This document shows positions 843-45,390 of a DNA stretch of 56,042 nt, one piece after another. The notes under the pieces are model-generated. The model saw only the letters and a program-made list of their open reading frames with translations, was not told the DNA's origin and did no database searches. Numbering within the stretch: position 1 is the stretch's first letter; each line of letters starts with the position of its first letter. The translations under genes and the position numbers were made by a program. Origin of the DNA: an uncultured Clostridia bacterium (lineage in GTDB: Bacteria > Bacillota > Clostridia > Oscillospirales > CAG-272); the NCBI GenBank assembly GCA_947625265.1, contig CANQNM010000001.1:1-56042 (forward strand), in the 5' to 3' direction.

Positions 843-3473
843 TCATGTTGCCGCGTCTTTGATTTGTTTTTTTACCGCTTCAAAGGCTTCAGGAAGTTTT
901 TCGATGTTCTTTCCTCCGGCAATGGCGGAGTCCGGCCTTCCGCCGCCGCCTCCTCCGCAAATAACTGCGGCGGTTTTGACGAGAGCCCCGGCGTTCATTC
1001 CCTTTGCCTGCGCTTCCTTGCCCACCGAGCAGATCAGATTCAGTTTTTCACTGTTGACAACCGCCAGCAGTACCACGCAAAGGGGATCTTTTGCCCTCAA
1101 ATCGTCGCAGAAATTTCTTGCGGCGTCCGCCGCAATTCCTTCGGTTTGGGCAATGAGCAGATGCAGCGAGCAAAATTCAGTTGTATGGGAAAGCAGGGCG
1201 TTCATCTTTTCGTTTGCAATTCTTGCTTCCAAGGCTTCGATTTTGGATTTTTCACTTTTGATATCGTTTTGCAGCTGCGCGGCCTTTTTGGCAATATCGT
1301 GGGGATTGGGAATTTTCAATTCTTTCGCGGTGTCCAAAATCAGGTTGTCTTTTTCTGCCATGAGTCTGAGCACGCCGTAACCCGTGGTTCCTTCGATCCT
1401 TCTGACTCCCGCCGCCACAGATGTCTCGGCGATGATTTTGAAGAGTCCGATTTTCCCAGTGTTTTCCACATGGGTGCCGCCGCAAAGTTCAGTTGAAAAA
1501 TCGCCCATTTTCACCATGCGCACCACTTTTCCGTATTTTTCGCCGAACAGTGCCATGGCGCCGTGTTTCTTCGCGGTTTCGATATCGGTTTCCACTGTGT
1601 TCACGCACTCTCCCGCAAGGATGTGTCGGTTGACAAGCGTCTCGACCTGAATGAGTTCTTCGGGAGTAAGCGGGGCGTAGTGAGAGAAGTCGAACCGAAC
1701 CCGGTCACTATCCACGTAGGAACCCGCCTGCTCTACATGATTTCCGAGAACTTTTCTCAGCGCCGCCTGCAACAGGTGACAAGCCGAATGGTTGCGGCGG
1801 ATGCTGTTCCTGCGTTCGGCGTCAACGGTGAGAGTCACACTGTCGCCCGTGTTTAATGTTCCGTCGGTTATGTGACATAGGTGGAAAAATACGCCGTCCT
1901 TCTTTTTGGTGTCTGTGATTTCCGCGCTGCAAAGACCTGTTTTGACGGTGCCTCTATCGCCTACCTGGCCGCCGCCCTCGCCGTAGAAAGGCGTTCTGTC
2001 GGTGATTAGCGTGAATTCTCCCTCGGAAACGCTGTCAAGAACTATATCCTCCGCGATGATTCCAAGAACGGTTGCAGAACTTTCGTCTTCCGAATACCCT
2101 GTAAACTCTGTTTTCGGGAAATGCTCAAACAGATCTTTGGATGCTTCGGACCATCCGGAGATGTTGGCTCTTGCTTCTCTTGCGCGGGTTCTTTGGTTTT
2201 CCATCAGGGCTTTAAAAGTTTCTTCATCAATTCCCAGCCCGGATTCCGCTGCAATTTCCCTGGTCAGATCGGAGGGAAAACCGTAGGTGTCGTAGAGTTT
2301 GAAGACGTCCTCCCCGTCGATGCGGGTTTTGTTTTCCTTTTTTGATTTCACGGTTATGGCGGAGAGAATCGAAAGGCCGGAATCGACGGTGGCGGCGAAA
2401 CGCTCTTCCTCAATGCCGATGATTCTCTGAATATATGCCAGTTTTTCGGTAAGTTCCGGATATTCGCTGAAGTTTTCTTTGGCCACGACCGCCGCGATAT
2501 CCGCAAGGAAGGTGCCCCGGATGCCCAGCATTCTCCCATGGCGTGCCGCCCGTCTCATCAGTCGGCGCAGAACATATCCTCTTCCCTCGTTGGAGGGCAC
2601 CACTCCGTCACAGATCATGAACACCGTGGAACGGATATGGTCGGTGATTACCCTTAAAGAGACGTCGTTTTTTTCATTTTCACCGTACACGACGCCCGCG
2701 CGGTCACATACGCAGAGCATGATGTTTCTGACGGTATCCACCTCAAAAAGACTGTTTACCCCCTGCATGATGCATGCCAACCGTTCCAGGCCCATACCGG
2801 TGTCGATGTTGGGATGGGCGAGACGGGTGTAGTTGCCCTTTCCGTCGTTTTCAAACTGCGTGAAGACATTGTTCCAGAATTCCATGTATCTGTCGCAGTC
2901 GCAGCCCGGTTTGCAATCGGGACTTCCGCAGCCGAAAGCGGGTCCTCTGTCAAAATAAATTTCAGAGCAGGGACCGCAAGGACCGGAACCGTGCTCCCAG
3001 AAGTTGTCTTCCTTTCCCAGATGGACCACCCGTTCGGCAGGCAGTCCGATGTCCTTTGTCCAGATGTCGTATGCCTCGTCGTCATCCTTGTAAACGGTTG
3101 CCCACAGTTTATCCACGGGCATTTCCAGAACCTCGGTGATGTACTCCCATGCCCAGGAGAGCGCTTCCTTCTTGAAATAGTCGCCGAAAGAGAAATTTCC
3201 CAGCATTTCAAAGAAGGTACCGTGGCGCGCGGTGAGCCCCACCCGGTCGATGTCGGGTGTGCGAATGCATTTCTGACAGGTGGTCATTCTGCGCCTGGGA
3301 GGTTCCAGTTCCCCCGTGAAATATTTTTTCAGGGGCGCCATGCCCGCGTTGATGAGCAGCAGGGATTTGTCGTTGACGGGCACAAGAGGGAAACTCTTGT
3401 GCCGGAGATGTCCTTTGGATTCAAAAAAAGTAAGATAACTCTCTCGGAGTTGGTTTACGCCCGTCCATTTCAT
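843..3473 (-). CDS. alaS: Alanine--tRNA ligase
   Basis: The start was chosen at MKWTGVNQLRESYLTFF rather than the longer ORF. Class II motifs are present (FEMLGNFSFGDYFK), as are the editing and zinc motifs HSACHLLQ and CGGTHV and a DHHA1-like C-terminus. Confidence 0.95.
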   Translation of the reverse strand: MKWTGVNQLRESYLTFFESKGHLRHKSFPLVPVNDKSLLLINAGMAPLKKYFTGELEPPRRRMTTCQKCIRTPDIDRVGLTARHGTFFEMLGNFSFGDYFKKEALSWAWEYITEVLEMPVDKLWATVYKDDDEAYDIWTKDIGLPAERVVHLGKEDNFWEHGSGPCGPCSEIYFDRGPAFGCGSPDCKPGCDCDRYMEFWNNVFTQFENDGKGNYTRLAHPNIDTGMGLERLACIMQGVNSLFEVDTVRNIMLCVCDRAGVVYGENEKNDVSLRVITDHIRSTVFMICDGVVPSNEGRGYVLRRLMRRAARHGRMLGIRGTFLADIAAVVAKENFSEYPELTEKLAYIQRIIGIEEERFAATVDSGLSILSAITVKSKKENKTRIDGEDVFKLYDTYGFPSDLTREIAAESGLGIDEETFKALMENQRTRAREARANISGWSEASKDLFEHFPKTEFTGYSEDESSATVLGIIAEDIVLDSVSEGEFTLITDRTPFYGEGGGQVGDRGTVKTGLCSAEITDTKKKDGVFFHLCHITDGTLNTGDSVTLTVDAERRNSIRRNHSACHLLQAALRKVLGNHVEQAGSYVDSDRVRFDFSHYAPLTPEELIQVETLVNRHILAGECVNTVETDIETAKKHGAMALFGEKYGKVVRMVKMGDFSTELCGGTHVENTGKIGLFKIIAETSVAAGVRRIEGTTGYGVLRLMAEKDNLILDTAKELKIPNPHDIAKKAAQLQNDIKSEKSKIEALEARIANEKMNALLSHTTEFCSLHLLIAQTEGIAADAARNFCDDLRAKDPLCVVLLAVVNSEKLNLICSVGKEAQAKGMNAGALVKTAAVICGGGGGGRPDSAIAGGKNIEKLPEAFEAVKKQIKDAAT

Positions 3474-3866
3474 AACGTGTTTTTTCCTTTCTCTTCGCGA
3501 ACGTCTTTTCATTTCCGTGTTCCTGCGGAATGCGGGTTCCCTTTGGCGACAGCCAGGTTTGGCATTTCTGTGTCTCAGCATTCCTTTTATCATGTGAACA
3601 GGACCCCGGAGATTCCGTTTTCCGCGACGTATTCCGCCACGGGCGGTTTTTTGTTTCTATAAACTTTCAGACCTCAAATTTTAAATTTTCAAAGGGAGGA
3701 ATTCTCTTTGCTTGGATGTGCCCTTGGCCCCGAAACCTTCGGGGCGAAGTTTGCGGTTCAACCGTTTAGCCGTCCGTATATCCGTTCGTGGTCCGTTTGT
3801 TTTCTATACCCGTTCATGCGACGTCAGGCCATCCGCGCGTTTGGACGGCGACGCCGCTGTCTCAAA

Positions 3867-5234
3867 TCAAATATCGTCAAAGTCTTTGACGTCAATGCCG
3901 GCGGCAAGAGTTGGGTCAACGTCTGAGGGAGTGCCGTTCACGGCAAGCGTCTGATCCCTGTTGCGCAGATCCGGGGGAGCGCTTCCCACGATTTCCTCAT
4001 AACTCTTATCGGGATGTTGAAGCATTACATCGAGCACTGTGATATATTCCCGCGTGATCTCCCGGGGAGTGATCATACTGTCCGATCCCGCCCGATCGAG
4101 ACATAGGGTGAGAAAATGCAGGATCTGCTCCTCGGTGATGCGGCAGGGACTGCCGTGGTAGAGTCCATGGAGTTCGGTGATTCTGTGACAGAGCGCCAGC
4201 AGTTCATTGTCCGACATTCTTTTCAGTCTGAAAACCGGCCCCATCAGGTTTCTGTACCCGCCCATAGAGGCGATGCGTCCGTCGGACAGACGGCTTTTCA
4301 GCGCTTCATAACTGTACAGGCCTCTCCTAGGATCCTCCAGAAAGGCGGGCGTTCCTCCGAAGTATAGCCCCAGATACGGGGAGCGTCCTTGAAGGGAATC
4401 GTTGTACATGGAAAGAAGTTTCTCGTAGTTGCTCTCTCTGGAAACTCTGTTCACGATTTTATACAGATTGACGCACTCGTCGATGAACACCAGCAGCCCT
4501 GTGTAACCAATTTGCCGGACGAAAACCGCGTAGAGTTTGATAAAATCAAACCAGTTTTCGTCGTCGATGATCATGCCTACGCCCAAGGCGGCGCGCGCCT
4601 CTGTTTTGGTGGTGTATTCTCCTCTCAGCCAGCGCAGACAGGCGCTTTTCTTTCTGTCGTCGTCCTCGGTGAAGGCACGGTGGTACTGCATCAGTACGTT
4701 CGCAAAATCAAATCCACCCACCTGACCTTCCATCAGAGAGGCGACTCCGTAGACCTTTGCCGACAGTTCTTTTTCAAAAGCCGGCGATCCGGGAGCGGAT
4801 CCCGCGGCGGCGATTTCCGACGAGAGATTGTCAAGCCATCGGGAAATGAGACTTTGCATGCCGTTTCCGTCGGGATTGGTTCTGGTGGAAAGGTTTTTGA
4901 TCAGTTCCCTGTAGGTAGCCATTCCCGTGCCGGATTTGCCGCAGATTCTCCTTTCGGGGGAGAGGTCGCAGTCGGCGCATACAAACCCCTTTTCAAGAGC
5001 GTAACCGCGCAGAAGTTGGATGAGGAAGGATTTTCCGCTGCCGTATTTTCCGATGATGAAGCGGGTTTTGCTGCCGCCTTCGGCGATTTCATCCAGATCG
5101 TCCGCGAGAGCGGAGATCTCTTCGGTTCTGCCCATGGCGATATATGGCGCGCCGACCCTGGGTACAACGCCTGCGGACAGCGAAGACAACAGCCCGGAAA
5201 GAATCCTTTTCGGGATTTTCAGTTGCTTATCCAT
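3867..5234 (-). CDS. DUF2791-type P-loop ATPase (BrxD / Shango SngB-like)
   Basis: Walker A is GKYGSGKS and Walker B is LLVFIDEC. The N-terminal pattern RILSGLLSSLSAGVVPRVG...IAMGR is typical of this family. The start codon is overlapped by the upstream small ORF. Confidence 0.7.
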   Translation of the reverse strand: MDKQLKIPKRILSGLLSSLSAGVVPRVGAPYIAMGRTEEISALADDLDEIAEGGSKTRFIIGKYGSGKSFLIQLLRGYALEKGFVCADCDLSPERRICGKSGTGMATYRELIKNLSTRTNPDGNGMQSLISRWLDNLSSEIAAAGSAPGSPAFEKELSAKVYGVASLMEGQVGGFDFANVLMQYHRAFTEDDDRKKSACLRWLRGEYTTKTEARAALGVGMIIDDENWFDFIKLYAVFVRQIGYTGLLVFIDECVNLYKIVNRVSRESNYEKLLSMYNDSLQGRSPYLGLYFGGTPAFLEDPRRGLYSYEALKSRLSDGRIASMGGYRNLMGPVFRLKRMSDNELLALCHRITELHGLYHGSPCRITEEQILHFLTLCLDRAGSDSMITPREITREYITVLDVMLQHPDKSYEEIVGSAPPDLRNRDQTLAVNGTPSDVDPTLAAGIDVKDFDDI

Positions 5235-5383
5235 GACCTGATCTCCTCCTCATAGTCGGGCAAGGTTGAAAAAACTCCCTCCCGCTCTTCAAGAACGATA
5301 TCTCCGATACGTTCCAGCGCTTCTTCGTTGATTTGTCCGGCAAGACTGTGCGGGGATAGAGAAAATTTCTCCGCCATCTTCAT
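5219..5383 (-). CDS. 54-aa acidic ORF resembling the detached C-terminal tail of a TerB-C domain
   Basis: This ORF is not in the supplied track because it is under 60 aa. It translates to MKMAEKFSLSPHSLAGQINEEALERIGDIVLEEREGVFSTLPDYEEEIRSWISN. Its ATG overlaps the TGA of the upstream ORF (ATGA), and its 3' end overlaps the ATPase start by 16 nt. Confidence 0.45.
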   Translation of the reverse strand: MKMAEKFSLSPHSLAGQINEEALERIGDIVLEEREGVFSTLPDYEEEIRSWISN

Positions 5384-6963
5384 GTAGGCCCCCTGCCCGA
5401 TACAAGCGCCGCCAGCGCTTCTCTGTTTTCCCCCGCTTTTTTGTTTTTGACTGCGTCTTCGGCCTCGGAAGATTCTTGTTTGACTCCCGATAACCGGTGC
5501 TCTTCCGGCAGGGGAAAACCGGTTTCGGGTTTTCGAACGTCTTTTGCGAGTCTCCCGTCGGGTTGCCCGTGTATCAGACGGTTTCGGTCGTTTGTGAAAT
5601 CCGCAGAATTCTCAAAATCCGTGCGATCCGTGAAAACCGGAGAAAGCCTGTCGACCACTTTCAAAGACTGTTCCTCGATTTTTCTCGCTTCACCGAAGGA
5701 GAACCCCTTGCTCTCCGGTTCATATTTCTGAGCGTAATCCTCGTATTCGACGGATCTTATCGTGTGGGCTGCGGGAAGATTTTCTTTGAAATATTCCTCG
5801 ATGACCTTTCGCATGGGCGCGGTCAGGGAAGGTGCGGAAAGGCGGGGACGAATGCCGCAGTGCGCACGAACAAAGTTTTCGCAGAGTTTCACGGCGTCGG
5901 TGACAACAGAAAGGGTACCCACCGTGCGCGCGGGCGTATAAAAAATGTCCAACCGTTTTTTTTCTCCGTAAACGCACACCGCTCCGTCATAGGAAGTTCT
6001 ACTGATTTTTTGAAGTTCTGCTTCCTTTTCCTCAAAGCGCGGGTCGTTTTCCAATTGCATGGCCTGAAAGAATCGGTTCATAGCGGCGGGGATATGGGTT
6101 TCGAAAAGCGACGCGTTTTCCTTGGTCATATATTTGCTGTCCCTGTAGGAATAGGAGGATAGAAGAAGATTTGGGTGAAGATGTTCCTCGGCGTTCAGAT
6201 AAAATTCCCTGAAGGAAGAAACCTGTCTGCCTGCCGCGAGCACCTGCTTGAAAAGGTGTTTTTCGGGGCGAACCTGATGGATGAGACAATAGTCAGGGAT
6301 CCACTCGGAGAGATATTTGTCCAGTTTTGGGTAGACCTTTCGATAGTTGATCCAGAGTTTGAGAAGAAACTCCACGCCCTTTTCGGGGGGCAAAACATCC
6401 GGGAGATTGATGATCTCATAGGAAAAAAGGAGCAGATAACTGAAATCCGCCCGCAAGAAAATCTCCTTTTTGAAGGATGTTCGCCAAAAGAGGTAGAAGC
6501 GCAGCTGCTGCGCGGTGAGTTGATGATACTGAGGCATGAAAGAGAAATAGGGAACGGGCGGTGTACTCTCGCCCTCCATGGAGAAAAGCGCGAGGGCGTT
6601 TTTTCTGAAATTCGAGAAGAAAGAGTAGGCGTTTGGCCATGGATAGATCTCCACATGGCGCACAAATCCCGAGGTACAGTCATAGATTTTTTCCGGGCGC
6701 TGTTCGGACGTTGGGAGAACAGAAGGCCCCTCTGCCTTTTCCTGCTCCTGTCGTCCGGTTCCTTCGGGTGGGGGCACGGAGGGAGAAAGAGTCCGCTTAT
6801 AAGACGGCTCCGTACCTGAAAGGGGGCGGCGGGTGAGATTCTTCTTAGAAGACTTTCCGCTTTTCGCAGATTTCCCGAAGTTTTTGTCCGTCGGCATGAG
6901 AGTGTCAATGTCCCAGAAGGAGTCGTCGTCTGTGAAACCGTCGTTTCCGGGCATTTGCTCCAC
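5380..6963 (-). CDS. TerB-N / TerB-C domain protein (Shango SngA-like)
   Basis: The RBS is AAGGAGGTGG. A disordered N-terminus is followed by a TerB-N-like core (PYFSFMPQYHQLTAQQLRFYLFWR...YLLLFSYEIINL) and an acidic TerB-C-like region. Confidence 0.65.
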   Translation of the reverse strand: MEQMPGNDGFTDDDSFWDIDTLMPTDKNFGKSAKSGKSSKKNLTRRPLSGTEPSYKRTLSPSVPPPEGTGRQEQEKAEGPSVLPTSEQRPEKIYDCTSGFVRHVEIYPWPNAYSFFSNFRKNALALFSMEGESTPPVPYFSFMPQYHQLTAQQLRFYLFWRTSFKKEIFLRADFSYLLLFSYEIINLPDVLPPEKGVEFLLKLWINYRKVYPKLDKYLSEWIPDYCLIHQVRPEKHLFKQVLAAGRQVSSFREFYLNAEEHLHPNLLLSSYSYRDSKYMTKENASLFETHIPAAMNRFFQAMQLENDPRFEEKEAELQKISRTSYDGAVCVYGEKKRLDIFYTPARTVGTLSVVTDAVKLCENFVRAHCGIRPRLSAPSLTAPMRKVIEEYFKENLPAAHTIRSVEYEDYAQKYEPESKGFSFGEARKIEEQSLKVVDRLSPVFTDRTDFENSADFTNDRNRLIHGQPDGRLAKDVRKPETGFPLPEEHRLSGVKQESSEAEDAVKNKKAGENREALAALVSGRGPT

Positions 6964-7100
6964 CTCCTTTTTCCGTTCTTTTCATAATACCACAAACAGG
7001 GAAACAAGTCAAGGTTTATTTTATGAAAGAAGTGTCCACGAAGGCGCCGTACATATTTTTCACAAAAATAAAAAAATTTACAGGATTTTTTAAAATAGTA

Positions 7101-7129
7101 TTGACAAATTGGAATTTTTTGTTTATAAT
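7101..7129 (+). promoter_or_regulatory. Consensus sigma-A promoter
   Basis: TTGACA, a 17-nt spacer and TATAAT all match consensus exactly, within an AT-rich intergenic region. Confidence 0.75.
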
Positions 7130-7235
7130 TGTCTTGTTGCAGCATACAAAAATAACAAAAAAGGTGTTTGAAAGAAGAACTGTCATAAAAAAGTATTTTA
7201 TTGCTTGAATCCCTGCGATTTTGGTGTGTGCTTTT

Positions 7236-7526
7236 ATGATTCTCTCATTTACTCTTGAGGCAATTCATTCAATATCTTCAAGCCGCATAGCGTCTGAACC
7301 GGATTGCACGATAGATTATGGAGCGACTACCAACGGTTATGTAGTCTTTGATACTAAAATGGAAAATTCGGTTGCTGTTTACCATGGCTATAACAATGCC
7401 GAAGACTTTAAAAGCGCTTTTGGATTTGGCGCAGGGGCAGTGATGGCAAGAAATACGAGCACCGGAGAAATATTTATAGGTGTCATTTGCTCTGAACACC
7501 GGAACTTCTCTGGGGTTTGGCTTTAA
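7236..7526 (+). CDS. Hypothetical small protein (coding status uncertain)
   Basis: The ORF sits between a perfect promoter and an intrinsic terminator. Its amino-acid composition is protein-like, but there is no convincing RBS, and GC is lower than in the neighbours. Confidence 0.35.
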   Translation: MILSFTLEAIHSISSSRIASEPDCTIDYGATTNGYVVFDTKMENSVAVYHGYNNAEDFKSAFGFGAGAVMARNTSTGEIFIGVICSEHRNFSGVWL

Positions 7527-7551
7527 ATGGCTCGATATCTGAACGGAAAAA

Positions 7552-7586
7552 GGAACCGTGCGGCTGAAAGTCGTGCGGTTCCTTTT
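7552..7586 (+). terminator. Intrinsic terminator
   Basis: An 11-bp stem (ggaaccgtgcg / cgtgcggttcc, with two G-U pairs) is followed by TTTT. Confidence 0.65.
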
Positions 7587-7659
7587 GATGTGAAAAGAGT
7601 TTTCCGAACCGTCTCCTACGGAAAGGCGGGCCTTCGGAGCATTTGAGAGGAAATTTTTC

Positions 7660-8616
7660 TTAGGTCGCAAAGGGAAGGGAGAAATCGCTTTCGATGATTT
7701 TGCGGCACTGAACGGGCGAATAACGCCAGCGGTCAAGGTGTTTCTGCTCTTCCGGAAGAAAATATCGGGGAGGAGCGGGAGGGGCGAAGTCGTTGTAGAA
7801 GTCGATGAGCACCAGTTTGATTTTCATGCGTTCGGGATTGATGCTTTTGATAAATACTGCCGCCTTCTGTCCCACGCTGACTCCTTCTTTATATTCGGCC
7901 AGTCCGGCGAGATTGGCGGTGAGTTCTACGAAGATTCCGTAGTCTTCGATGCTCCGGATGACGCCGGTCACGGTCTGTCCCGGCTCATAAAGCGCCGCGT
8001 TTTCCGCCCAACTGCCCAGCAGTTCTTTGTGGGAAACACAAATGCGTCCGGTAGTTTTGTCTACGCCTTTGACGATCACTTTTATGTAGTCTCCGTTGGA
8101 AAAACGGTCGCTGGGATGGGAAATGCGGGACACCGAGATGCAGTCGATGCTCAGCAGGGAAACGATGCCGCATCCGATATCCACAAAAGCACCGAAAGGT
8201 TCCTCGTGCGTCACTCTGGCGGGCAGGATGTCTCCCGGACAAAGGCGACGCAGGAAATTCTGAAAGCACTCTTCCTGTGCGGCTTTGCGGGAAAGCATGG
8301 CTACCGTTTTTCCAGTGGCGTCCTTCGTAAAACCCGTGATTCTGAAGCACACGGGTTTGCCCACCCGTGAGATCACGGCGATATCCTTTTCCTGCCTGTC
8401 GGGCAGGGGAAGGAATGCCTCGCTTCTTGGGATAATTCCCCAAACTTCGCCGCCGAGAGAAACGGTCAGATCCATTTTGCTGTTGCAGGACAGCGCGATG
8501 CCCTCAAGAATTTTTTGCTGCTGCCACGCCTTCTCCAGTCCTTTCAGGCTGCTGATATACTCCTTGTTTTCGTATGAATTCCACAATACCCCTTCGGGCA
8601 TATATTTTTGCATCAT
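7660..8616 (-). CDS. S1 RNA-binding domain protein (multi-S1)
   Basis: The RBS is GGAGGT. Repeated S1-like segments are present (GDILPARVTHEEPFGAFVDIG, GQTVTGVIRSIEDYGIFVEL). Confidence 0.75.
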   Translation of the reverse strand: MMQKYMPEGVLWNSYENKEYISSLKGLEKAWQQQKILEGIALSCNSKMDLTVSLGGEVWGIIPRSEAFLPLPDRQEKDIAVISRVGKPVCFRITGFTKDATGKTVAMLSRKAAQEECFQNFLRRLCPGDILPARVTHEEPFGAFVDIGCGIVSLLSIDCISVSRISHPSDRFSNGDYIKVIVKGVDKTTGRICVSHKELLGSWAENAALYEPGQTVTGVIRSIEDYGIFVELTANLAGLAEYKEGVSVGQKAAVFIKSINPERMKIKLVLIDFYNDFAPPAPPRYFLPEEQKHLDRWRYSPVQCRKIIESDFSLPFAT

Positions 8617-19035: not shown

Positions 19036-22000
19036 CTATTTGAAAATCTGGAAACTGTAAATGCGCGCGTGGCTGTCCCCGTCCCGTGCGGGCGTGAGAA
19101 TTCGCAGCATGACATAGCGCGCCTTTTGTGCGGGGAAGGATCGGAGGGTTACATCCTCTCTGTTGTCGCGCACGCTGTCAATGACTGTCCATGGATCGCC
19201 TGAGCGCACCTTTGTCAGAATGTCGAAATCCACCGTGTTCCACAGTTTGGATTCGACGGTGCCCGCATGGCAGAGAAGATACGAGGAAATTTCTTTTGGC
19301 TCCTCCAGATCTACGGTCAGGGTACAGACTCCCTTCTCATCCCGGTTTCCGCACCATTTGGTATGGCCGTTGCCGTTGAGCGCCAGTTCCGCCCGTTCTC
19401 TTCTGTTGACCTCGTCGTTTGCCCTGCACGGTTTCTGGAATGCCAGGTTTTCGCCCAACTCCTTGTATACCGCTTTCACAAAAAGGTCCTTTTTCCCCAT
19501 TTGTACGACGGTGAAGCATCCGTCGCCGTTCCTCGTTCCGGCGCCTTCAAATCCTTTGAAGATCGCGCCGTTTTTGACATAGGGAGCGCGCAGAAGGATC
19601 AGCGCGCCTTCCGGATAGTCGCCATCCCCTCCGGTGCATCCTTCCGTCGTCAGGCGGTGAACCGGGGGTTGTTCTGCCTCTCCGTAGGAATCGTAGAGTT
19701 CCACTTCGTGGTTGCTGTATTTCCTGTCGGTTTCTGTGGCGGCGAGCAGTACAACGTCTCCGTCTGTCGGAAGAATGACTTCCCTTGCGCCGTCGATGCA
19801 CAGTTCACAGGTGAAGAAATAGGCGAAATCGTAGAAATTGTCCTCTCCTTTTCCGTTATGCGTGTGCGTGAAGACCGCGGCTACCGGATCTTTTGTCACG
19901 TGATTGACGCTGCCCGAGATCACTGATTCGACGCTTCCCACCGGACGGTGCATCGGCTCGATGGAAAGTCGTTCCTTCCTGCCGTCCACCGTGAACACCG
20001 CTTCTTTCCGGCAGTTTTTTGACGCTGCAAGAATTCTCAGATACCTGCGTTTTCCTGTAAGGGCGATTTTTTGCCCCTGGCAGACGCAGGCGTTTTCCTG
20101 ACCCTTTTGCAGGCGGTAGAGAATGCCCGCTGCGCATATCCGGCGGTGAAAGAGTTCCATAGGCAGGTTGATCTCCTCCAAAGCGGTTTCCCCACGATTT
20201 GTGAAAAGCCGAAGATTCATCGGAAGATTTACAGGGAGATCCTCTTTCTTTCTGCTCCTCTTCTTTGGAAGGCGCAGAGCGAAGGTTTTGATTTCATATT
20301 CTGAAAGATCGAAGGTGAACGCCCGCCGTTCATGAGGCAGAGACTCCCCCATCCGTTCGTATCCGTCGCAGGCGTACAACTCCAGAATATCGCAGTGCGG
20401 TAGTTCGACGCGCAGATTTCTTTGCGTTTTGCCTTCGGTTTCCCGCACGCGCACAATGACCAGTTCTCCCTTCTCCTCCTCCTTTACGGCGGTCAGAGCA
20501 GCACCTTCGCCCGAGAGTTTCAAGAAGGAGATAGAAGAGTACGTCCCTTTGTGCGCGCTTGGAACGGCGATGGCCGCGGGAGGGTTGTTCAGCGCTTCGG
20601 CGTGTTGAATTGCCTGGAAGCGTTCCTCTTCCGTGCCGTATCCTTCGATGGCGAAGGTGAAGAGGTTTTGCCCGAAATCCTGCCAATCCTGTCCGGATGC
20701 GGGCAGATACCCGCCTTTCGGCGTATGAATGAGCGCAAGGCAAAGCGTGCGGTCGTCAGGTTTGGTCATGGCGTATTTGCAGTCGTTGGAAAGGATCACG
20801 CCGAACGTCCCCGAGCGATCCTTCTGGTCCGCCCAGAGATGCACGTTGTGCATGAAATAGGGATACCTGTCAGTGTTGTACCCCCCGACCGCGCCAGGGT
20901 CGCTGTCAAACAGCGCGCAGTCATTTTCCGCTGCGAGCGGGAAGCGCATGAACAGGTTGGAAGCGCGCTCATACCAGCGAACCCTGTTTTCAAAAATCAG
21001 TCTGGTACTCCCGTTTGACAATTTGATGGTAGTTTCAAAAATGCTGTCTTTATACTTCCTTGTGATTCTCAGCCCTACGTATACCGGGCGGCAGTCCAGC
21101 ACCTCCAAAGATTCCCCTTTACCCGGAAACGCCGGTCGTTTTTTGAAATCTTCAAAATTGTATTCCCAGGATGGCCAGACGGTGCTGCTGTCGGGGAGAA
21201 TTTCAAAACACACGGGCGCGGAGAGCAGTTCCCTTCCTAACCGTTTGTCATAGATGGAGCAGACGTTGTATTGACGGTTCAAACGAACTCTCAGACAGTC
21301 GTTCTCAAGCAGACTTTTGCCGATTTTCAGGGAAGTCTTTTGTCTTCGCTTTTCATCGCGCAAATGGAAGACCGTGAAGGAGAAGGGCGGAAGAACCGCC
21401 GTGAACGCCGCCTTTTTTTCGGGAACGCCGAGTGTGCCGGAAGCGGCGAATTCTGCGGATGCCGAGGATACCGCAGGTGCCGGGGATGCCGCAGGTGCCG
21501 GGGATGCCGCAGATGCCGCCGATGTCGCGGCAAAGGCGGTGGGAAGACGCTCCTTTCCCCCGTGGGCATAAGCGCAGACATTTTTTCCCTCGAAGGGCAG
21601 TTCCAGCGTTTCCCTGCGTTCAAAAGCGCAGGAGTTGAACACCAGATACGCTTTGCCTTTTCCCCGAGTGTCTAAGATTTCCCCTACTGCCGACAGTGCG
21701 TTTTGCAGTTCACCCCCGAAGAGATTGTGGGCAAGAAGCATATCGTTGTGGGAGTATATATAGGCGTTTGCCACCGACGTTCCGGTGAGATCGTCATGGA
21801 ATTGGTGCCAAAGAAAAGTTTTCCACGCTTCCGTGAGTTTTTCTTTGGGATAGGGCTCTCCCGCAAGGAATTTTGCGGCGATTGCCGCGCGCTCGGTACG
21901 GTCGGCAAGCAGTTCATTCTGACGGTTCAGCCGTTTCATTGCGGTGTGGCTGGTCATCGCCCCGTAACCGTGGGGGATCAGCAGTCCGCCCTCGTATATC

Positions 22001-22962
22001 GGGAGGTTTTGAATCTCTTCTTCGGTCAGTCCCTCATAAATATCCGTGGGGGAGGCGGAAATTACCTCATACGGCGGATATGCGCCGCCAAGGGACTCTG
22101 CGCCGTCAAGAGACTCTGCATCGTGCGAAGCCCCGTGGGATGCGACTGTGCCATTCTTTTGACGATCCAGAGCTTCCTGTAAAAGGCGTGCTGAACCGTC
22201 CGTGCAGGATCCACCATAGTCGCCCGTGCCGAAGTACATGCTTCTTCTGGGAACGCCTGCGTATTTCTCGTTGTGCTCGATGGCGCGGGCGATTTCCTCC
22301 CGTGCCTCCAACGGTCTTTCGTCGCCTTTGGCGTCAAAATTGTAGGTGTAATTTCCCTCTAAAAGCGAAACAAAAATCCACTTGCCGTCTGGACCTTTCC
22401 ATCTGCCCAAATCCATTCTAGGCAGGGAACTTTGCGGCATAGGCGGGAGTACCGCGCCGTCTTTTGAAAGCAGAGGGGACCCGGCGCCCCAGACCAATTT
22501 CTGCGTGGAGAACCCTATCAGCCCCATGTGTGCCGCCACCGAGGGCAGGGACGCCCGGAAACCGAAACAGTCGGGCAGGAAGATGTCTTTGGAGAGTATG
22601 CCGAATTCTTTCTCAAACCAGTTGTTTCCGTAGAGAATCTGGCGCATCAGTGCTTCGCCCGATGGGACGTTGACGTCCATAGCGTCCCACGTTGCCCCTA
22701 CCGGGTTCCAATTTCCCTTGTGTACATATGTTTTGACTTTTGCGTATTTTTGCGGATAGTATTCCTTCATCAAACTGTAACGGAAAGCGCCCTCAAAATT
22801 CAGTTTGTACCCGGGATATTTCTTGAAGAGCGCGAAATTGTAGTCCATTGTGTTCTTGATACAGTCTCGCACGGTGTCTACAACCGTCCAGTTCCATTGG
22901 GTGTCGAGATGTGCGTTGGATACGGCAAAGAATTTTCTCTTTTTCTTCTCTTCTTCACTCAT
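19036..22962 (-). CDS. GH38 alpha-mannosidase with C-terminal F5/8 type C (discoidin) domain
   Basis: The RBS is AGGAG. N-terminal GH38 motifs are present (SNAHLDTQWNW, FLPDCFGF), and the C-terminus is discoidin-like. The protein is 1308 aa. Confidence 0.8.
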   Translation of the reverse strand: MSEEEKKKRKFFAVSNAHLDTQWNWTVVDTVRDCIKNTMDYNFALFKKYPGYKLNFEGAFRYSLMKEYYPQKYAKVKTYVHKGNWNPVGATWDAMDVNVPSGEALMRQILYGNNWFEKEFGILSKDIFLPDCFGFRASLPSVAAHMGLIGFSTQKLVWGAGSPLLSKDGAVLPPMPQSSLPRMDLGRWKGPDGKWIFVSLLEGNYTYNFDAKGDERPLEAREEIARAIEHNEKYAGVPRRSMYFGTGDYGGSCTDGSARLLQEALDRQKNGTVASHGASHDAESLDGAESLGGAYPPYEVISASPTDIYEGLTEEEIQNLPIYEGGLLIPHGYGAMTSHTAMKRLNRQNELLADRTERAAIAAKFLAGEPYPKEKLTEAWKTFLWHQFHDDLTGTSVANAYIYSHNDMLLAHNLFGGELQNALSAVGEILDTRGKGKAYLVFNSCAFERRETLELPFEGKNVCAYAHGGKERLPTAFAATSAASAASPAPAASPAPAVSSASAEFAASGTLGVPEKKAAFTAVLPPFSFTVFHLRDEKRRQKTSLKIGKSLLENDCLRVRLNRQYNVCSIYDKRLGRELLSAPVCFEILPDSSTVWPSWEYNFEDFKKRPAFPGKGESLEVLDCRPVYVGLRITRKYKDSIFETTIKLSNGSTRLIFENRVRWYERASNLFMRFPLAAENDCALFDSDPGAVGGYNTDRYPYFMHNVHLWADQKDRSGTFGVILSNDCKYAMTKPDDRTLCLALIHTPKGGYLPASGQDWQDFGQNLFTFAIEGYGTEEERFQAIQHAEALNNPPAAIAVPSAHKGTYSSISFLKLSGEGAALTAVKEEEKGELVIVRVRETEGKTQRNLRVELPHCDILELYACDGYERMGESLPHERRAFTFDLSEYEIKTFALRLPKKRSRKKEDLPVNLPMNLRLFTNRGETALEEINLPMELFHRRICAAGILYRLQKGQENACVCQGQKIALTGKRRYLRILAASKNCRKEAVFTVDGRKERLSIEPMHRPVGSVESVISGSVNHVTKDPVAAVFTHTHNGKGEDNFYDFAYFFTCELCIDGAREVILPTDGDVVLLAATETDRKYSNHEVELYDSYGEAEQPPVHRLTTEGCTGGDGDYPEGALILLRAPYVKNGAIFKGFEGAGTRNGDGCFTVVQMGKKDLFVKAVYKELGENLAFQKPCRANDEVNRRERAELALNGNGHTKWCGNRDEKGVCTLTVDLEEPKEISSYLLCHAGTVESKLWNTVDFDILTKVRSGDPWTVIDSVRDNREDVTLRSFPAQKARYVMLRILTPARDGDSHARIYSFQIFK
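21466..21535. repeat. 18-nt in-frame tandem repeat inside the GH38 gene
   Basis: The unit ggatgccgcaggtgccgg occurs about 3.5 times and encodes an Ala/Ser/Pro-rich linker (SPAPAASPAPAVS). Confidence 0.7.
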
Positions 22963-39921: not shown

Positions 39922-42216
39922 CTATCCAACGGAGCATACCTCCACTACCGCTACGCTTCGATCATCCGGCTTTTGTTCATCCTTTTCGGCAATTGCCAAA
40001 ATATCTTCAGCCATCTCCTGAACGTTTTCTCTCAATTTCCCTGAAAGAAGGGAAGAAAGCCATGAGGAGCCTTCCATATCTGTGCAGACGCCGTCGCTCA
40101 TGAGCAGGATTTTGTCACCGGGTTTGAGGTGCAGTGTGATCAATTCACAGTTTACCTCCCTTGCCGCTCCTACGGGCATGCTGGCGGAAGAGAGTTTAAA
40201 GGTGTTTCCACCCCGCAGCACCAACGAAGGGCACGCACCGCATTTGACGAAATCGCATTTTCCGTCATAGAGGTCCAATCTCATCAGATCCACTGTTGTG
40301 CAGCATTCGCAGCTTTGACACAGCAAAAAATCGTTGACGGTTTTGAGCACGGTAGGCAGTGCTCCGCCGCAAAGGGAGAGTTGTTCTACAAAGTGGCAGG
40401 CGATTCTTGATACCAGCGCCGCATCTCTGCCGCTTCCCATACCGTCACAAAGCAAGGCGTAGAAGCAGTGATCCTGTATGAAGGTGTATACGGTGTCTCC
40501 GCAATACTCTTCTCCCTCCTTTCGTTTCGCGGCCGCTCCGAACTTTGCCGAGATTTTTTCTCTCCTTTTAAAGATCAGTTCGTTTCTTTGGGGAGTGCAT
40601 TCAAGTTCAGGGTAAGAAAGCGCAAGTCCGCATTTTTGCTCAAACTGTTTTTGCAATTCCGGCGCGCTTTTTCCCAGGTCCGAGACAGAGACGCCGCTTG
40701 CCCGCAGAACGATGGAGCGTTCGCCTTTGACGAAACAGGATTCGAATCCAATGGACAAACTGTGAAGCGCGCGTTCAAAATCCTTTTGTACCTTCTCGTT
40801 TTGCGCCTGTTCCTGTTTATGAAGAGTTTCCCGATCATGCAAAAGTTCCGATATGCTTTTATAACAGCGCGCGTAGCAGTCCGAACGGTCTGCTTCATAG
40901 AGATGACGCAGGTATGCTGCGTAGTCGTTGTTGACGTTGTCGCAGATCGTTTCCCACTTGGTGCAAGCGGAGGAGAGACGGGAGGGGGGAGATTCTACGC
41001 TGAGTTTGCCGACTTCAAAGAGGGTGTCGGCCAATCTTTTTTTTCGATCTTCTTCTTTGAAACAGCCGCCCTTGCAATTTCCACAGACTCTGTTTAGTCC
41101 TGTTTCACATATACGCCCCGCGTCCTCTCTTGCCGGTAGACGCAATTTGCCGGAGAGTGCGAAAAGTCGCTCGGAAAGCACATCCAATGAGTTTTCCATA
41201 GGATTTTTCGAAAGATTCTCATCACTCTTCTTTTCGTTATCCGCCGTTTTTTCGGCCGATTCGCGTTTATTTTTCAAAAAGAACGTAGAGATCGGAATAT
41301 AAACCAACAGCCCACAGACAAGATCGGGAAGGACATATAGAAATGAGGAACTTCCTCTAGCGTAAAAGGACCAGGCAAATCCCGCAAGAACCCCCAGCCA
41401 GGGCGCCGTACGTTTGCTGTATTTGTAAAGCGCCCCGGAAACCAGACTGAGAAGCGCCAATATCGGTACATACTCCCGCCCACAGGCGATCCCGAGAATC
41501 ACCCCCAGCGCGACGCTGTAGAGCAGATCCCCCTTTTCGCACATAAAAAAACAAAGAAGTGCGGAAAGTGCCACGGCTGGAGAGAAGGCGAGAAAGGAAA
41601 ATCCCTTTACGCTGTATATGAGTGAGAATAGAATCGCGGCGTACGCTCCCTTTTTATAGAGGGGATGTGCGCTGACACCCATGAAGGCGCCGGCGTAGAG
41701 AAAGGTAAAGGCGCCTGCTGAAAGCATGTAGAAGAGCATGGCCATAAGAGCATGAACGGTAAAACCTTCTGACACGCAGCCGTACAGCCCCAGCGAAAAA
41801 GAGAGAACGGTTGCTATTGCTACCCGGATTCCAATGGGAGCGTTTGTGCCGGAGAGCCTGTTTTGCTCTCTATAAAACGCCGACAGTCGGAGCCGCAATG
41901 CCAGCGCCACACTGTATATCGCGGCAAAAAGAATGCCCGCGTTGCCTCTTGTAAAGGACGCGACCAAGCCTCCCGCCCATATATACCACAAATCTTTGGT
42001 GGAAGCGCAAAGAAACGCCACACCCATTGGAAATGTGCCGAAAAGCATTTCACCTGAGGAAAAAAGAAACCCGCCCAGCGCGAAGACCGTGCCTTCCAAA
42101 ATAGACCTTCCCCACGCTTTGCGCAGTTCGCCATCCTTTGTGATTTTTTTAAAGGACGACATATATTTTTCAAACGGCGGAAAATGCCACGGCTTTTTCT
42201 CATCTTTTCTGTTCAC
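39922..42216 (-). CDS. spoIIE: Stage II sporulation protein E (PP2C phosphatase)
   Basis: A GTG start follows AAGGAGGA. The N-terminal half is polytopic, and the C-terminal PP2C domain contains LLCDGMGSG and LLMSDGV. Confidence 0.85.
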   Translation of the reverse strand: MNRKDEKKPWHFPPFEKYMSSFKKITKDGELRKAWGRSILEGTVFALGGFLFSSGEMLFGTFPMGVAFLCASTKDLWYIWAGGLVASFTRGNAGILFAAIYSVALALRLRLSAFYREQNRLSGTNAPIGIRVAIATVLSFSLGLYGCVSEGFTVHALMAMLFYMLSAGAFTFLYAGAFMGVSAHPLYKKGAYAAILFSLIYSVKGFSFLAFSPAVALSALLCFFMCEKGDLLYSVALGVILGIACGREYVPILALLSLVSGALYKYSKRTAPWLGVLAGFAWSFYARGSSSFLYVLPDLVCGLLVYIPISTFFLKNKRESAEKTADNEKKSDENLSKNPMENSLDVLSERLFALSGKLRLPAREDAGRICETGLNRVCGNCKGGCFKEEDRKKRLADTLFEVGKLSVESPPSRLSSACTKWETICDNVNNDYAAYLRHLYEADRSDCYARCYKSISELLHDRETLHKQEQAQNEKVQKDFERALHSLSIGFESCFVKGERSIVLRASGVSVSDLGKSAPELQKQFEQKCGLALSYPELECTPQRNELIFKRREKISAKFGAAAKRKEGEEYCGDTVYTFIQDHCFYALLCDGMGSGRDAALVSRIACHFVEQLSLCGGALPTVLKTVNDFLLCQSCECCTTVDLMRLDLYDGKCDFVKCGACPSLVLRGGNTFKLSSASMPVGAAREVNCELITLHLKPGDKILLMSDGVCTDMEGSSWLSSLLSGKLRENVQEMAEDILAIAEKDEQKPDDRSVAVVEVCSVG

Positions 42217-43108: not shown

Positions 43109-45247
43109 TTAGTTTATGACATTGTCCGCAATGGAGAAGAGTTTGCACATTCTCATGTAGGTGGGAATATGTTCCTCACTGCTGAGTGTCGGATCTTTTT
43201 CAAGAACTGCTTTCGCAGCCATGGCGGTTTTTTCCGGTATTGAAGCATCCGTGCAGGAGGATGCCAATTTGAAAGAAAATTCGCCGCTTTGTCTGGTCGT
43301 TTTCCCGGACGTTGATGGGAAAAAATCCCCCGGACCGCGCAGTTTCAAATCCTCGTTCGCAATTTCGATGCCTTTCTGTGTTTTGCATACCGTTTGCAGG
43401 CGCTTAAACGCTGTGCTTTCTTTTTGACATTCCGAAACCAGCACGCAATAGGATTGAACTGTTCCTCTTCCTACCCTGCCGCGGAGTTGGTGCAGTTGGG
43501 ACAATCCGAAACGTTCGGCATTTTCTACAATCATCAGGGTCGCGTTGGGCACGTTTACCCCCACCTCGATGACGGTTGTGGACACAAGAACCTGAATTTC
43601 ATTTTTGGCAAAAGCGGTCATGACCTCTTCCTTCTCTTTGGGCTTCATTTTTCCGTGCACGAACCCCACTTTGAGCGAGGGCAGTTCTTTTTGCAGTTCT
43701 TTTGAAAACTGAACGGCGGCTTTCAAAGGCGGGGGCGGCGCGCAGGTTTGCGCGGGGCTGCATTCAAAAACAATCAGTTTACCGTTTTCGCTGTCCTCCT
43801 CGGCATCCACCGCCGGACAGACCACATAGACCTGATGTCCTTCGTCGGTCTGCTTTTTGATAAACCCATTGAGCCTCGTTCTGTAACTCTCGTCTACGGC
43901 ATAGGTAAGCACTTTCTGTCTGCCGGGAGGAAGTTCATCAATGTAAGAGATGTCAAGACCGTTGTACAGAATAAGGGCAAGTGTTCTCGGAATGGGTGTG
44001 GCGGTCATCACCAGCATGTGTACCTGCTTCCCCTTACCGCCAAGGGAGGAACGTTGGTTCACACCGAAACGGTGCTGCTCGTCGGCAATGACCAGCGCCA
44101 GATTATCAAAGACGGTGTCCTCCGTCAAAATGGCGTGAGTACCGATTACCAGATGAACTTCTCCTGACAGGATCTGCGCGCGCACCTTCTTTTTGGCGGC
44201 AGGGGAGAGCGCGCCGATGAGCAGTGCCGTTTTGAATCCCAGTTTTTCAAACAGAGGGGCAAGATCTGAGAAGTGCTGGGAAGCGAGGATTTCGGTGGGA
44301 ACCATCAGCGCAGCCTGTTTGCCGTTTTTCAGCGCGATGTAAATGGCGCCTGCCGCACAGGCAGTTTTTCCCGAGCCCACATCTCCGCAGATCAGTCGGT
44401 TCATGGGAACTTGAGATGTCATATCCTTTCCAATTTCCTCAAGAGTTCTTTGCTGCGCGCCGGTGAGTGTGAAGGACAGCGCAGAGAGAAAGGGAACCAT
44501 GTCCACAGAATGCAGGCGTTCCTCTGTTCGGAGCGCGCGTTTTTCTGCACTTTTTTGCATACCCAGCGAGAAAAGAAAAAGTTCCTCAAAAATGAAACGT
44601 CTGCGCGCCCGATCCAATTCTTCATAGTTCTTTGGAAAGTGCACGGCACGAAAGGCCTCGTTTATGGGCAGAAGGCCGTAGGTTTCACGAATTTCTTCGG
44701 GAATTGGGTCGGGAATCGCGCCGGCAAGATCAAGAGCGGAGGCGACCGCGGCGGAAATGACTTTGCCGTTGAGTCCCTCGGTCAGCGGATAAACCGCCTT
44801 GAAATCAGGAAGGGGACGATTGACGCCGTATGCCTCATATTCTGGGCAGGACATTGAAAAATTTTTCCCTGTTTTTTCCACTCTGCCCCAAAATCTAAAA
44901 ACGGTGCCAAGATAAAAAATATCCCGAACATAGGGCTGATTGAAAAAGGTGATCACACACTTCCCGCTTTCATCGAAGGCCGTGAAACGCGTCATCACAC
45001 GTCCTCCCTTCAATCTTACGGAGGAGGGCTGCGACCCGACGGTGAGAACTGTGGCGCAGTGGTAAGGGAGAAGCGACGCTTCTCCCAGGCGGGAGATCTC
45101 CCCTCTGTTCTGATAGCCTCTTGGAAAGTGATACAGAAGATCGGAAATGCATTCAATGCCCAGTTTTGCAAAGCGCGCTGCCTTTACTCTGCCAACACCC
45201 GGAAGAACGGTGACCGGCTGAGTTACAAAATTCGAATTTTCCGACAT
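43109..45247 (-). CDS. recG: ATP-dependent DNA helicase RecG
   Basis: The start at MSENSNF follows a GGAGGT RBS. Walker A is GDVGSGKT, the DEQH box is DEQHRFG, and QLRGRVGRG is present. Confidence 0.92.
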   Translation of the reverse strand: MSENSNFVTQPVTVLPGVGRVKAARFAKLGIECISDLLYHFPRGYQNRGEISRLGEASLLPYHCATVLTVGSQPSSVRLKGGRVMTRFTAFDESGKCVITFFNQPYVRDIFYLGTVFRFWGRVEKTGKNFSMSCPEYEAYGVNRPLPDFKAVYPLTEGLNGKVISAAVASALDLAGAIPDPIPEEIRETYGLLPINEAFRAVHFPKNYEELDRARRRFIFEELFLFSLGMQKSAEKRALRTEERLHSVDMVPFLSALSFTLTGAQQRTLEEIGKDMTSQVPMNRLICGDVGSGKTACAAGAIYIALKNGKQAALMVPTEILASQHFSDLAPLFEKLGFKTALLIGALSPAAKKKVRAQILSGEVHLVIGTHAILTEDTVFDNLALVIADEQHRFGVNQRSSLGGKGKQVHMLVMTATPIPRTLALILYNGLDISYIDELPPGRQKVLTYAVDESYRTRLNGFIKKQTDEGHQVYVVCPAVDAEEDSENGKLIVFECSPAQTCAPPPPLKAAVQFSKELQKELPSLKVGFVHGKMKPKEKEEVMTAFAKNEIQVLVSTTVIEVGVNVPNATLMIVENAERFGLSQLHQLRGRVGRGTVQSYCVLVSECQKESTAFKRLQTVCKTQKGIEIANEDLKLRGPGDFFPSTSGKTTRQSGEFSFKLASSCTDASIPEKTAMAAKAVLEKDPTLSSEEHIPTYMRMCKLFSIADNVIN

Positions 45248-45390
45248 ATCTCTATGACCTCCCATGAAAATCTAGGCCAAGAATAGCACAAAAATCCTTG
45301 CTTTACAAGGGTTTTTCCCGTCAAAAGCGGTTCAAACCTGAAAATTTAAGAATTTGACTCCATCCCTAACCGGGATTTCCAAAAAAATCC

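Follow-up and report, generated by a model that had tools for sequence, protein, structure and literature searches.

Does a Shango locus need its helicase? The question is raised by a stretch of DNA from an uncultured Clostridia bacterium, an entire 56,042-bp contig from a metagenome-assembled genome (MAG) at NCBI, which is called the window here. Directly upstream of alaS, it carries genes for a SngA-like protein and for SngB, two of the three proteins of the anti-phage system Shango, and no gene for the third, the SngC helicase. A reading made from the sequence alone (the sequence-only reading) had left three options: a minimal helicase-less variant, a decaying copy, or a system whose helicase is supplied in trans. 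The first of these fits best, because relatives of the locus are free of both helicase and scar and the genes are under purifying selection. We consider it probable that the locus is a lineage-fixed two-gene derivative of Shango, in which SngC was lost in an ancestor, and that a clade of uncultured Clostridia has inherited the pair vertically at its site upstream of alaS. This reading is carried by the membership of the two proteins in the SngA and SngB families, the lack of a SngC remnant, synteny, co-divergence with AlaS, purifying selection and intact ATPase motifs.

The SngA-SngB pair in the window

The gene order on the minus strand is promoter, ribosome-binding site, the sngA open reading frame (ORF), a 54-aa ORF, sngB, a 393-nt spacer and alaS. 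The features are as follows (L numbers denote related loci).

6984..7012, minus strand: predicted sigma-70-like promoter before sngA (TTGACT, 17 nt, TG-n-TATTAT), a consensus match only, with 10 of 12 matches plus the TG extension
6968-6963, minus strand: ribosome-binding site of sngA, AGGAGG, upstream of the ATG at 6954
5380..6954, minus strand: truncated main part of sngA, 524 aa (TerB_N and PADLOC SngA matches; identical to P0277)
5394..5396, minus strand: site at which 4 nt (CGGA) are deleted, so that sngA goes into the -1 frame (blastn against L001)
5219..5383, minus strand: 54-aa ORF, the detached C-terminal end of SngA, or TerB-C tail (ends of the SngA and TerB_C profiles)
3867..5234, minus strand: sngB, 455 aa, an intact BrxD-family P-loop ATPase (PF10923, PADLOC SngB)
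3474..3866, minus strand: sngB-alaS spacer, 393 nt, without a helicase remnant (tblastn with SngC)
843..3473, minus strand: alaS, 876 aa, the conserved downstream flank (100% identical to P0157; synteny)

The three ORFs listed by the sequence-only reading (5380-6963, 5219-5383 and 3867-5234, minus strand) are all present, and the stop and start codons overlap as it had described, in an ATGA at 5380-5383 and in a 16-nt overlap at 5219-5234. The products called by NCBI are P0122 for SngB, P0157 for AlaS and P0277 for the truncated SngA. The ORF listing begins sngA at a GTG (6963, 527 aa), and an ATG at 6954 (524 aa) lies behind the AGGAGG; judged by the sequence, the ATG is the more likely start, in agreement with P0277. 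Similarly, alaS was listed as 843-3593, and its homologues begin at MKWTG (3473), which gives 876 aa.

The 455-aa P-loop ATPase recognized earlier turns out to be a full-length SngB of the PF10923 (BrxC_BrxD) family (5.4e-149). It matches the PADLOC SngB profile at 2.9e-160 over 416 of 439 positions and has intact Walker A (GKYGSGKS) and Walker B (FIDEC) motifs. Helicase-less and SngC-bearing loci alike conserve the residues of Walker A (GKYGSGKS) and Walker B (DEC) without variation (alignment A1). A search of the PDB with the SngB sequence gave no match, and exact look-ups of this sequence retrieved no record.

From its disordered N-terminus, the product of the truncated sngA runs through a TerB-N core and a linker into a TerB-C module, where a premature TGA ends it after the first part. 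The proposed TerB-N-like core is confirmed by a Pfam TerB_N match of the 527-aa ORF (3.5e-17; 63 bits, with a cut-off of 25), and the ORF also matches positions 81-467 of the 528 in the PADLOC SngA profile (5.7e-27). The disorder that had been suspected at the N-terminus is seen in an AlphaFold model of an intact homologue, P0278, where residues 1-10 and 26-91 have a predicted local distance difference test (pLDDT) score below 50. The Pfam checks that had been proposed were therefore borne out in part: TerB_N and PF10923 (DUF2791) are significant, and TerB_C reaches only 2.7e-4, below the Pfam cut-off, for its positions 102-148 of 148 on the 54-aa ORF.

No SngC-like protein was found in the 56 kb of the window by phmmer, by a hidden Markov model (HMM) of 32 SngC sequences or by relaxed tblastn. 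The sole superfamily 2 (SF2) helicase found there is a standard RecG with a wedge domain, that is, the housekeeping enzyme it had been taken for. The next gene downstream is alaS, and the spacer before it holds no SngC-like remnant, so the absence of a third large gene holds up, as does the description of a Shango-like locus (SngA plus SngB by PADLOC) without a helicase gene.

Relatives of the locus, the helicase and alaS

The same arrangement is present in relatives. SngA-SngB-alaS without a helicase was found through SngB in eight of them (L002, L004-7/L017, L008/9, L010/11, L016, L025, L036 and L082), and all of the relatives with SngB 62-77% identical have this order and neither a helicase nor a remnant of one. 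For example, L002, L004-7, L008/9 and L010/11 (SngB 77, 76, 74 and 67% identical) each have a TerB_N/TerB_C protein, a PF10923 ATPase and alaS, with outer flanks that vary among them. An AlaS-based search, which is free of ascertainment through SngB, found SngA-SngB directly upstream of a 73%-identical AlaS (L096-98, 13 contigs). The comparison of orthologous loci that the sequence-only reading had called for thus revealed a helicase or a deletion scar in none of them.

Identity to the window in L002, L004, L008 and L010 is 77, 76, 74 and 67% for SngB and 80, 79, 79 and 63% for AlaS; SngA evolves faster (52, 46, 43 and 34%). The divergence of SngB tracks that of AlaS, and therefore the pattern is one of vertical co-inheritance with a core gene. 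The cassette had been described as inserted between alaS and an S1-domain gene. This does not fit, as the order is inherited over AlaS identities of 63-80% and the S1 flank is common to L008 only, which also has the metallo-beta-lactamase gene of the window. The cassette is neither a recent insertion nor a decayed triad.

A scan of genome contigs with the single SngB sequence gave one distant, truncated match only (L003). A metagenome scan with an SngB alignment added 80 loci, which were pooled with the earlier loci and the window and classified by tblastn with SngA, SngC, AlaS and YbaK-like protein queries:

SngC downstream of SngB: 42 loci
alaS downstream of SngB instead: 15 loci
neither SngC nor alaS, with at least 2.5 kb (mostly 7 kb) of downstream sequence: 21 loci
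too short to call: 18 loci

SngC is absent in 36 of the 78 classifiable loci, and such counts are not frequencies of independent events, because the sample includes near-duplicates and metagenome fragments. The sequence inspected was +/-7-10 kb around each relative, and within it no SngC-like high-scoring segment pair was found by tblastn (E<=1e-3) in any of the 41 loci without a neighbouring SngC, hence no scars. No consistent third partner takes the place of the helicase upstream or downstream of the helicase-less pairs, where PADLOC matched nothing and the neighbours are unrelated housekeeping genes. As an aside, L064, which belongs to an otherwise SngC-bearing SngB clade, has a 740-aa ORF after SngB (3681-5903) with no Pfam, PADLOC or SngC similarity; this ORF may be spurious, or it may encode a partner that replaces the helicase.

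The helicase-less loci group into coherent clades in a neighbour-joining tree of SngB and are not tips scattered over it. The clade of the window (L001, L002, L004-9, L016 and L017) has 100% bootstrap support, and L082 is unplaced. Canonical plasmid loci from Klebsiella, Clostridium estertheticum and Paenibacillus have all three genes, amid insertion sequence (IS) and toxin-antitoxin genes. With the tree rooted on these plasmid loci, parsimony places SngC at the root and requires at least seven presence/absence changes.

The ratio of nonsynonymous to synonymous substitution rates (dN/dS, by the Nei-Gojobori method) is 0.06-0.10 for SngB and 0.19-0.25 for SngA in helicase-less pairs, compared with 0.09-0.10 and 0.14-0.19 in SngC-bearing pairs. 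Between the window and L001 it is about 0.2 for both genes, with few substitutions. Because dN/dS is low and the motifs are invariant across both kinds of locus, the two-gene state is kept by selection and is not in decay.

These observations also bear on the option that the helicase acts in trans, i.e., that the pair needs an SF2 helicase encoded elsewhere, either an unlinked one of the SngC, BrxHI or Lhr type or a housekeeping one. SngB and SngC are homologous to BrxD and BrxHI of BREX, which suggests that the ATPase normally pairs with such a helicase; SngA and SngB are alike in length and domains in helicase-less and helicase-bearing loci, and only part of each genome is visible. We nevertheless find this option unlikely, as nothing SngC-like lies within the 56 kb of the window or 7-10 kb of the helicase-less loci, and repeated independent loss of a linked gene, with at least seven changes, is unlike strict dependence.

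The recurring neighbour raises another possibility, that SngAB is in one operon with alaS and has its role in alanyl-tRNA metabolism or proofreading and not against phage. Several SngB lineages have alaS immediately after sngB, among them L082 (AlaS 56% identical) and L036, and tRNA-editing genes adjoin SngAB in other clades. Spacers between sngB and alaS are 28-132 nt in the relatives, compared with 393 nt in the window, and those of L008, L082 and L036 (28-60 nt) are too short for a promoter; therefore, read-through from sngB into alaS is possible there. However, a TTGACA-17-TATAAT promoter consensus is present in the spacers of six relatives (L002, L004, L010, L016, L025 and L096), and in L004 sngB is moreover followed by a hairpin with a T-run, which makes alaS its own transcription unit. 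Many other helicase-less loci have unrelated neighbours, with beta-galactosidase, FtsK, capsule or ABC-transporter genes following; L099 has alaS without SngAB, and the family is otherwise a mobile defence system. Given the spacer promoters and the unrelated neighbours, we treat the adjacency as positional synteny and regard a functional link to alaS as very unlikely. Coupling to alaS in an operon or in function was set aside on account of the consensus promoters in the six spacers.

The spacer in the window has a weak promoter-like site only, without the consensus promoter of the relatives. A T-box or other Rfam family was absent from the window at gathering scores and from the alaS leader at E<=1 (3380-3900). 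The leader (3474-3866) has two strong hairpins, GCCCCGAA-ggt-TTCGGGGC and CCGCC-cgt-GGCGG (3634-3646).

Some loci display patterns of their own. A YbaK-like (PF04073) gene lies between SngB and SngC in L014 (9403-9879) and L015 (9377-9853), and a D-Tyr-tRNA deacylase gene (dtd) is one gene downstream of SngB in L022 (9237-9686) and L023; the recurrence of tRNA-proofreading genes beside SngAB in separate clades may be coincidence. In L036 (8371-9415), SngB is 61% identical to that of the window and groups with the alaS-linked loci, and alaS again follows. The N-terminal 350 residues of its AlaS are only 36% identical to the AlaS of the window, which hints that alaS was replaced or that the pair came to lie upstream of it independently.

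On the other side of the pair are the S1-domain gene (7660-8616) and an AT-rich patch upstream of sngA (6964-7659; G+C content 0.36, compared with 0.50 for the contig). No integrase or IS element is near the locus, and the G+C content of the locus matches that of the contig. The patch has a perfect TTGACA-17-TATAAT promoter (7101-7129, plus strand) facing a 101-aa ORF (7221-7526, plus strand) with a hydrophobic N-terminus, for which there is neither a Pfam or PADLOC match nor a homologue in the fetched loci; L008 has two unrelated small ORFs in its place. Elsewhere in the window, SpoIIE-domain and RecG genes (39922-42216 and 43109-45265) mark the contig as that of a spore-forming Firmicute, and large glycoside hydrolases, e.g., GH38 (1308 aa, 19036-22962), fit a gut glycan degrader.

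The break in sngA

The 54-aa ORF had been taken for a separate component. It matches only the end of the PADLOC SngA profile (477-527 of 528, 1.5e-8), and because its matches are confined to the last 50 profile positions, it represents the C-terminus of SngA, not a component of its own. L001, a 2,868-bp contig from another sample with 98% identical DNA, has a continuous sngA that runs into the same 16-nt overlap with sngB. At the junction (blastn), the window reads GTATCGGG----CAGGGGGCC and L001 reads GTATCGGGCGGACAGGGGGCC; the four bases are the only difference there. The tail is thus in the -1 frame because CGGA is missing at about 5394-5396 relative to L001, and restoring the four bases gives a single 579-aa ORF that aligns end to end with its homologues. 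Programmed frameshifting at the break was considered and rejected, as L001, an allele of the same species, has no interruption of the frame at all.

The break lies at residue 520, the equivalent of residue 526 in P0278. In the AlphaFold model of P0278 (mean pLDDT 81), this is within a long helix, and the C-terminal module has a pLDDT above 95. The detached tail holds the nearly invariant residues N550, G558, D559, D574 and Y575 (N, GD and DY; alignment A2). Judging from the model, the deletion strips most of a conserved, confidently folded C-terminal module from the main SngA polypeptide. Foldseek found nothing at E<0.001 with the AF2 model of the intact homologue; the sole similarity, a winged-helix-like match of about 70 residues to LysR DNA-binding domains (E 0.4-2), is too weak to support a conclusion.

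The copy of sngA in the window has either been recently inactivated, or is expressed in two pieces, or was assembled wrongly. The last of these would mean that the frameshift is a consensus or assembly error of the MAG and that the real gene is one intact 579-aa sngA. The window is the whole contig of such a genome, the restored protein is full length and aligns throughout with its homologues, and the tail has no excess of changes (one synonymous and one non-synonymous relative to L001). Sequencing errors do not typically take the form of a 4-nt indel outside a homopolymer, though, and on balance we lean modestly against this explanation while taking it seriously.

One might also regard the whole locus as a dead remnant, a three-gene Shango that lost its helicase and whose other genes are decaying, with the frameshift as part of that decay. 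The deletion does cut sngA inside a conserved, well-folded module, and no helicase is present. Against this, the helicase-less state is old and common to all of the sampled relatives with AlaS at least 73% identical; dN/dS is 0.06-0.25, as in intact triads; sngB is intact with all of its motifs; a strain of the same species (L001) has an intact sngA; and there is no helicase scar. At most this single allele is newly broken. The decaying copy proposed as an option is therefore improbable.

The reading of the locus as a two-gene derivative of Shango has its own difficulties. In addition to the dependence among the locus counts, SngAB is missing upstream of alaS in L099 (AlaS 70% identical), and since L096-98 has the pair and L099 does not, the SngAB-alaS block is long-lived in the lineage and not universal. 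The deep branches of the neighbour-joining tree are weak, the wider group of alaS-linked loci having 53% bootstrap support. A helicase of the SngC or Lhr type, unlinked to the pair, may lie beyond the 56 kb of the window or the 7-10 kb around the other loci, and the local sngA is frameshifted, so the copy in the window may be non-functional. Finally, protection against phage was shown only for three-gene operons, in both published tests of Shango, in E. coli and in P. aeruginosa PA14.

Related systems and a possible mechanism

As in Shango (SngABC; Millman et al. 2022, Johnson et al. 2023), a SngA-like gene comes first in the window and a full-length sngB second, with overlapping frames. The TerB-N and TerB-C domains that define SngA are both present, the TerB-C tail in a separate frame, and the PF10923 ATPase is directly downstream of SngA, as expected of SngB. 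Sister lineages in the same Clostridia radiation carry bona fide SngC (3e-243 by PADLOC in L014). The differences are that sngA is split in the window copy; that the DEAD/DEAH Lhr/BrxHI-like helicase, which in Shango is in the same operon, is neither linked nor within the 56 kb; and that the described examples of Shango typically have a variable, island or mobile context, whereas the pair in the window is at a fixed housekeeping site, outside any defence island or plasmid, and vertically inherited. No description of a two-gene Shango was found in the literature searched.

Type 2 BREX (Pgl), with its BrxD and BrxHI proteins, is similar in that SngB shares PF10923 and SngC is homologous to BrxHI (8e-126). 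However, SngB scores 162 bits against the NCBIfam BrxD model NF033438, which has an equivalog cut-off of 350, and its match to the BrxD profile is only 6e-47, compared with 2.9e-160 for PADLOC SngB. No BREX genes flank the locus, whose neighbours are alaS and the S1-domain gene, and the partner of SngB is a TerB-N/TerB-C protein. The Ter tellurite-resistance cluster has in common with the locus the TerB-N and TerB-C accessory domains, which are said to have been first described with Ter systems by Anantharaman, Iyer and Aravind in 2012, but the window has no match to the TerB domain proper (PF05099) and no other ter genes.

How might the pair work? We propose that sngA and sngB would be read from one promoter and be translationally coupled through the 16-nt overlap. 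SngA would serve as a scaffold or sensor, in which a flexible linker joins the helical TerB-N core to a small, perhaps winged-helix-like C-terminal module (the Foldseek evidence is weak), and SngB would be a switch driven by nucleoside triphosphates. In relatives with all three genes, the Lhr/BrxHI-like SngC would contribute a motor acting on nucleic acid. The dedicated helicase would have been lost in an ancestor, after which the pair was presumably inherited at its fixed site directly upstream of alaS, with the SngA-SngB complex retaining a selectable activity without a helicase of its own; a pair of this type may act alone or borrow a housekeeping helicase of the host. The function is most likely still defence-related, a role that is assumed because the canonical relatives are anti-phage systems. 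We suggest, tentatively and just short of favouring it, that SngA and SngB form an autonomous module that works without a SngC-type helicase, having settled as a stable chromosomal resident, passed on vertically in a clade of gut Clostridia, that would be either a minimal Shango or a pair re-used for a task other than defence.

Shango is defined and detected as a three-gene system, and annotation tools generally require all three genes. Consequently, current censuses of defence systems probably overlook a considerable class of loci related to Shango among gut Firmicutes. Vertical retention for this long, over which AlaS has diverged to 63-80% identity, is unusual for defence genes. In many lineages the SngA-SngB pair has been retained in the absence of the helicase, under selection as strong as in the triads. 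The sensor/ATPase pair therefore looks like the functional core, and these loci are a natural experiment for dissecting the role of each part. If SngAB is indeed autonomous, the helicase would be an accessory of Shango and not its core.

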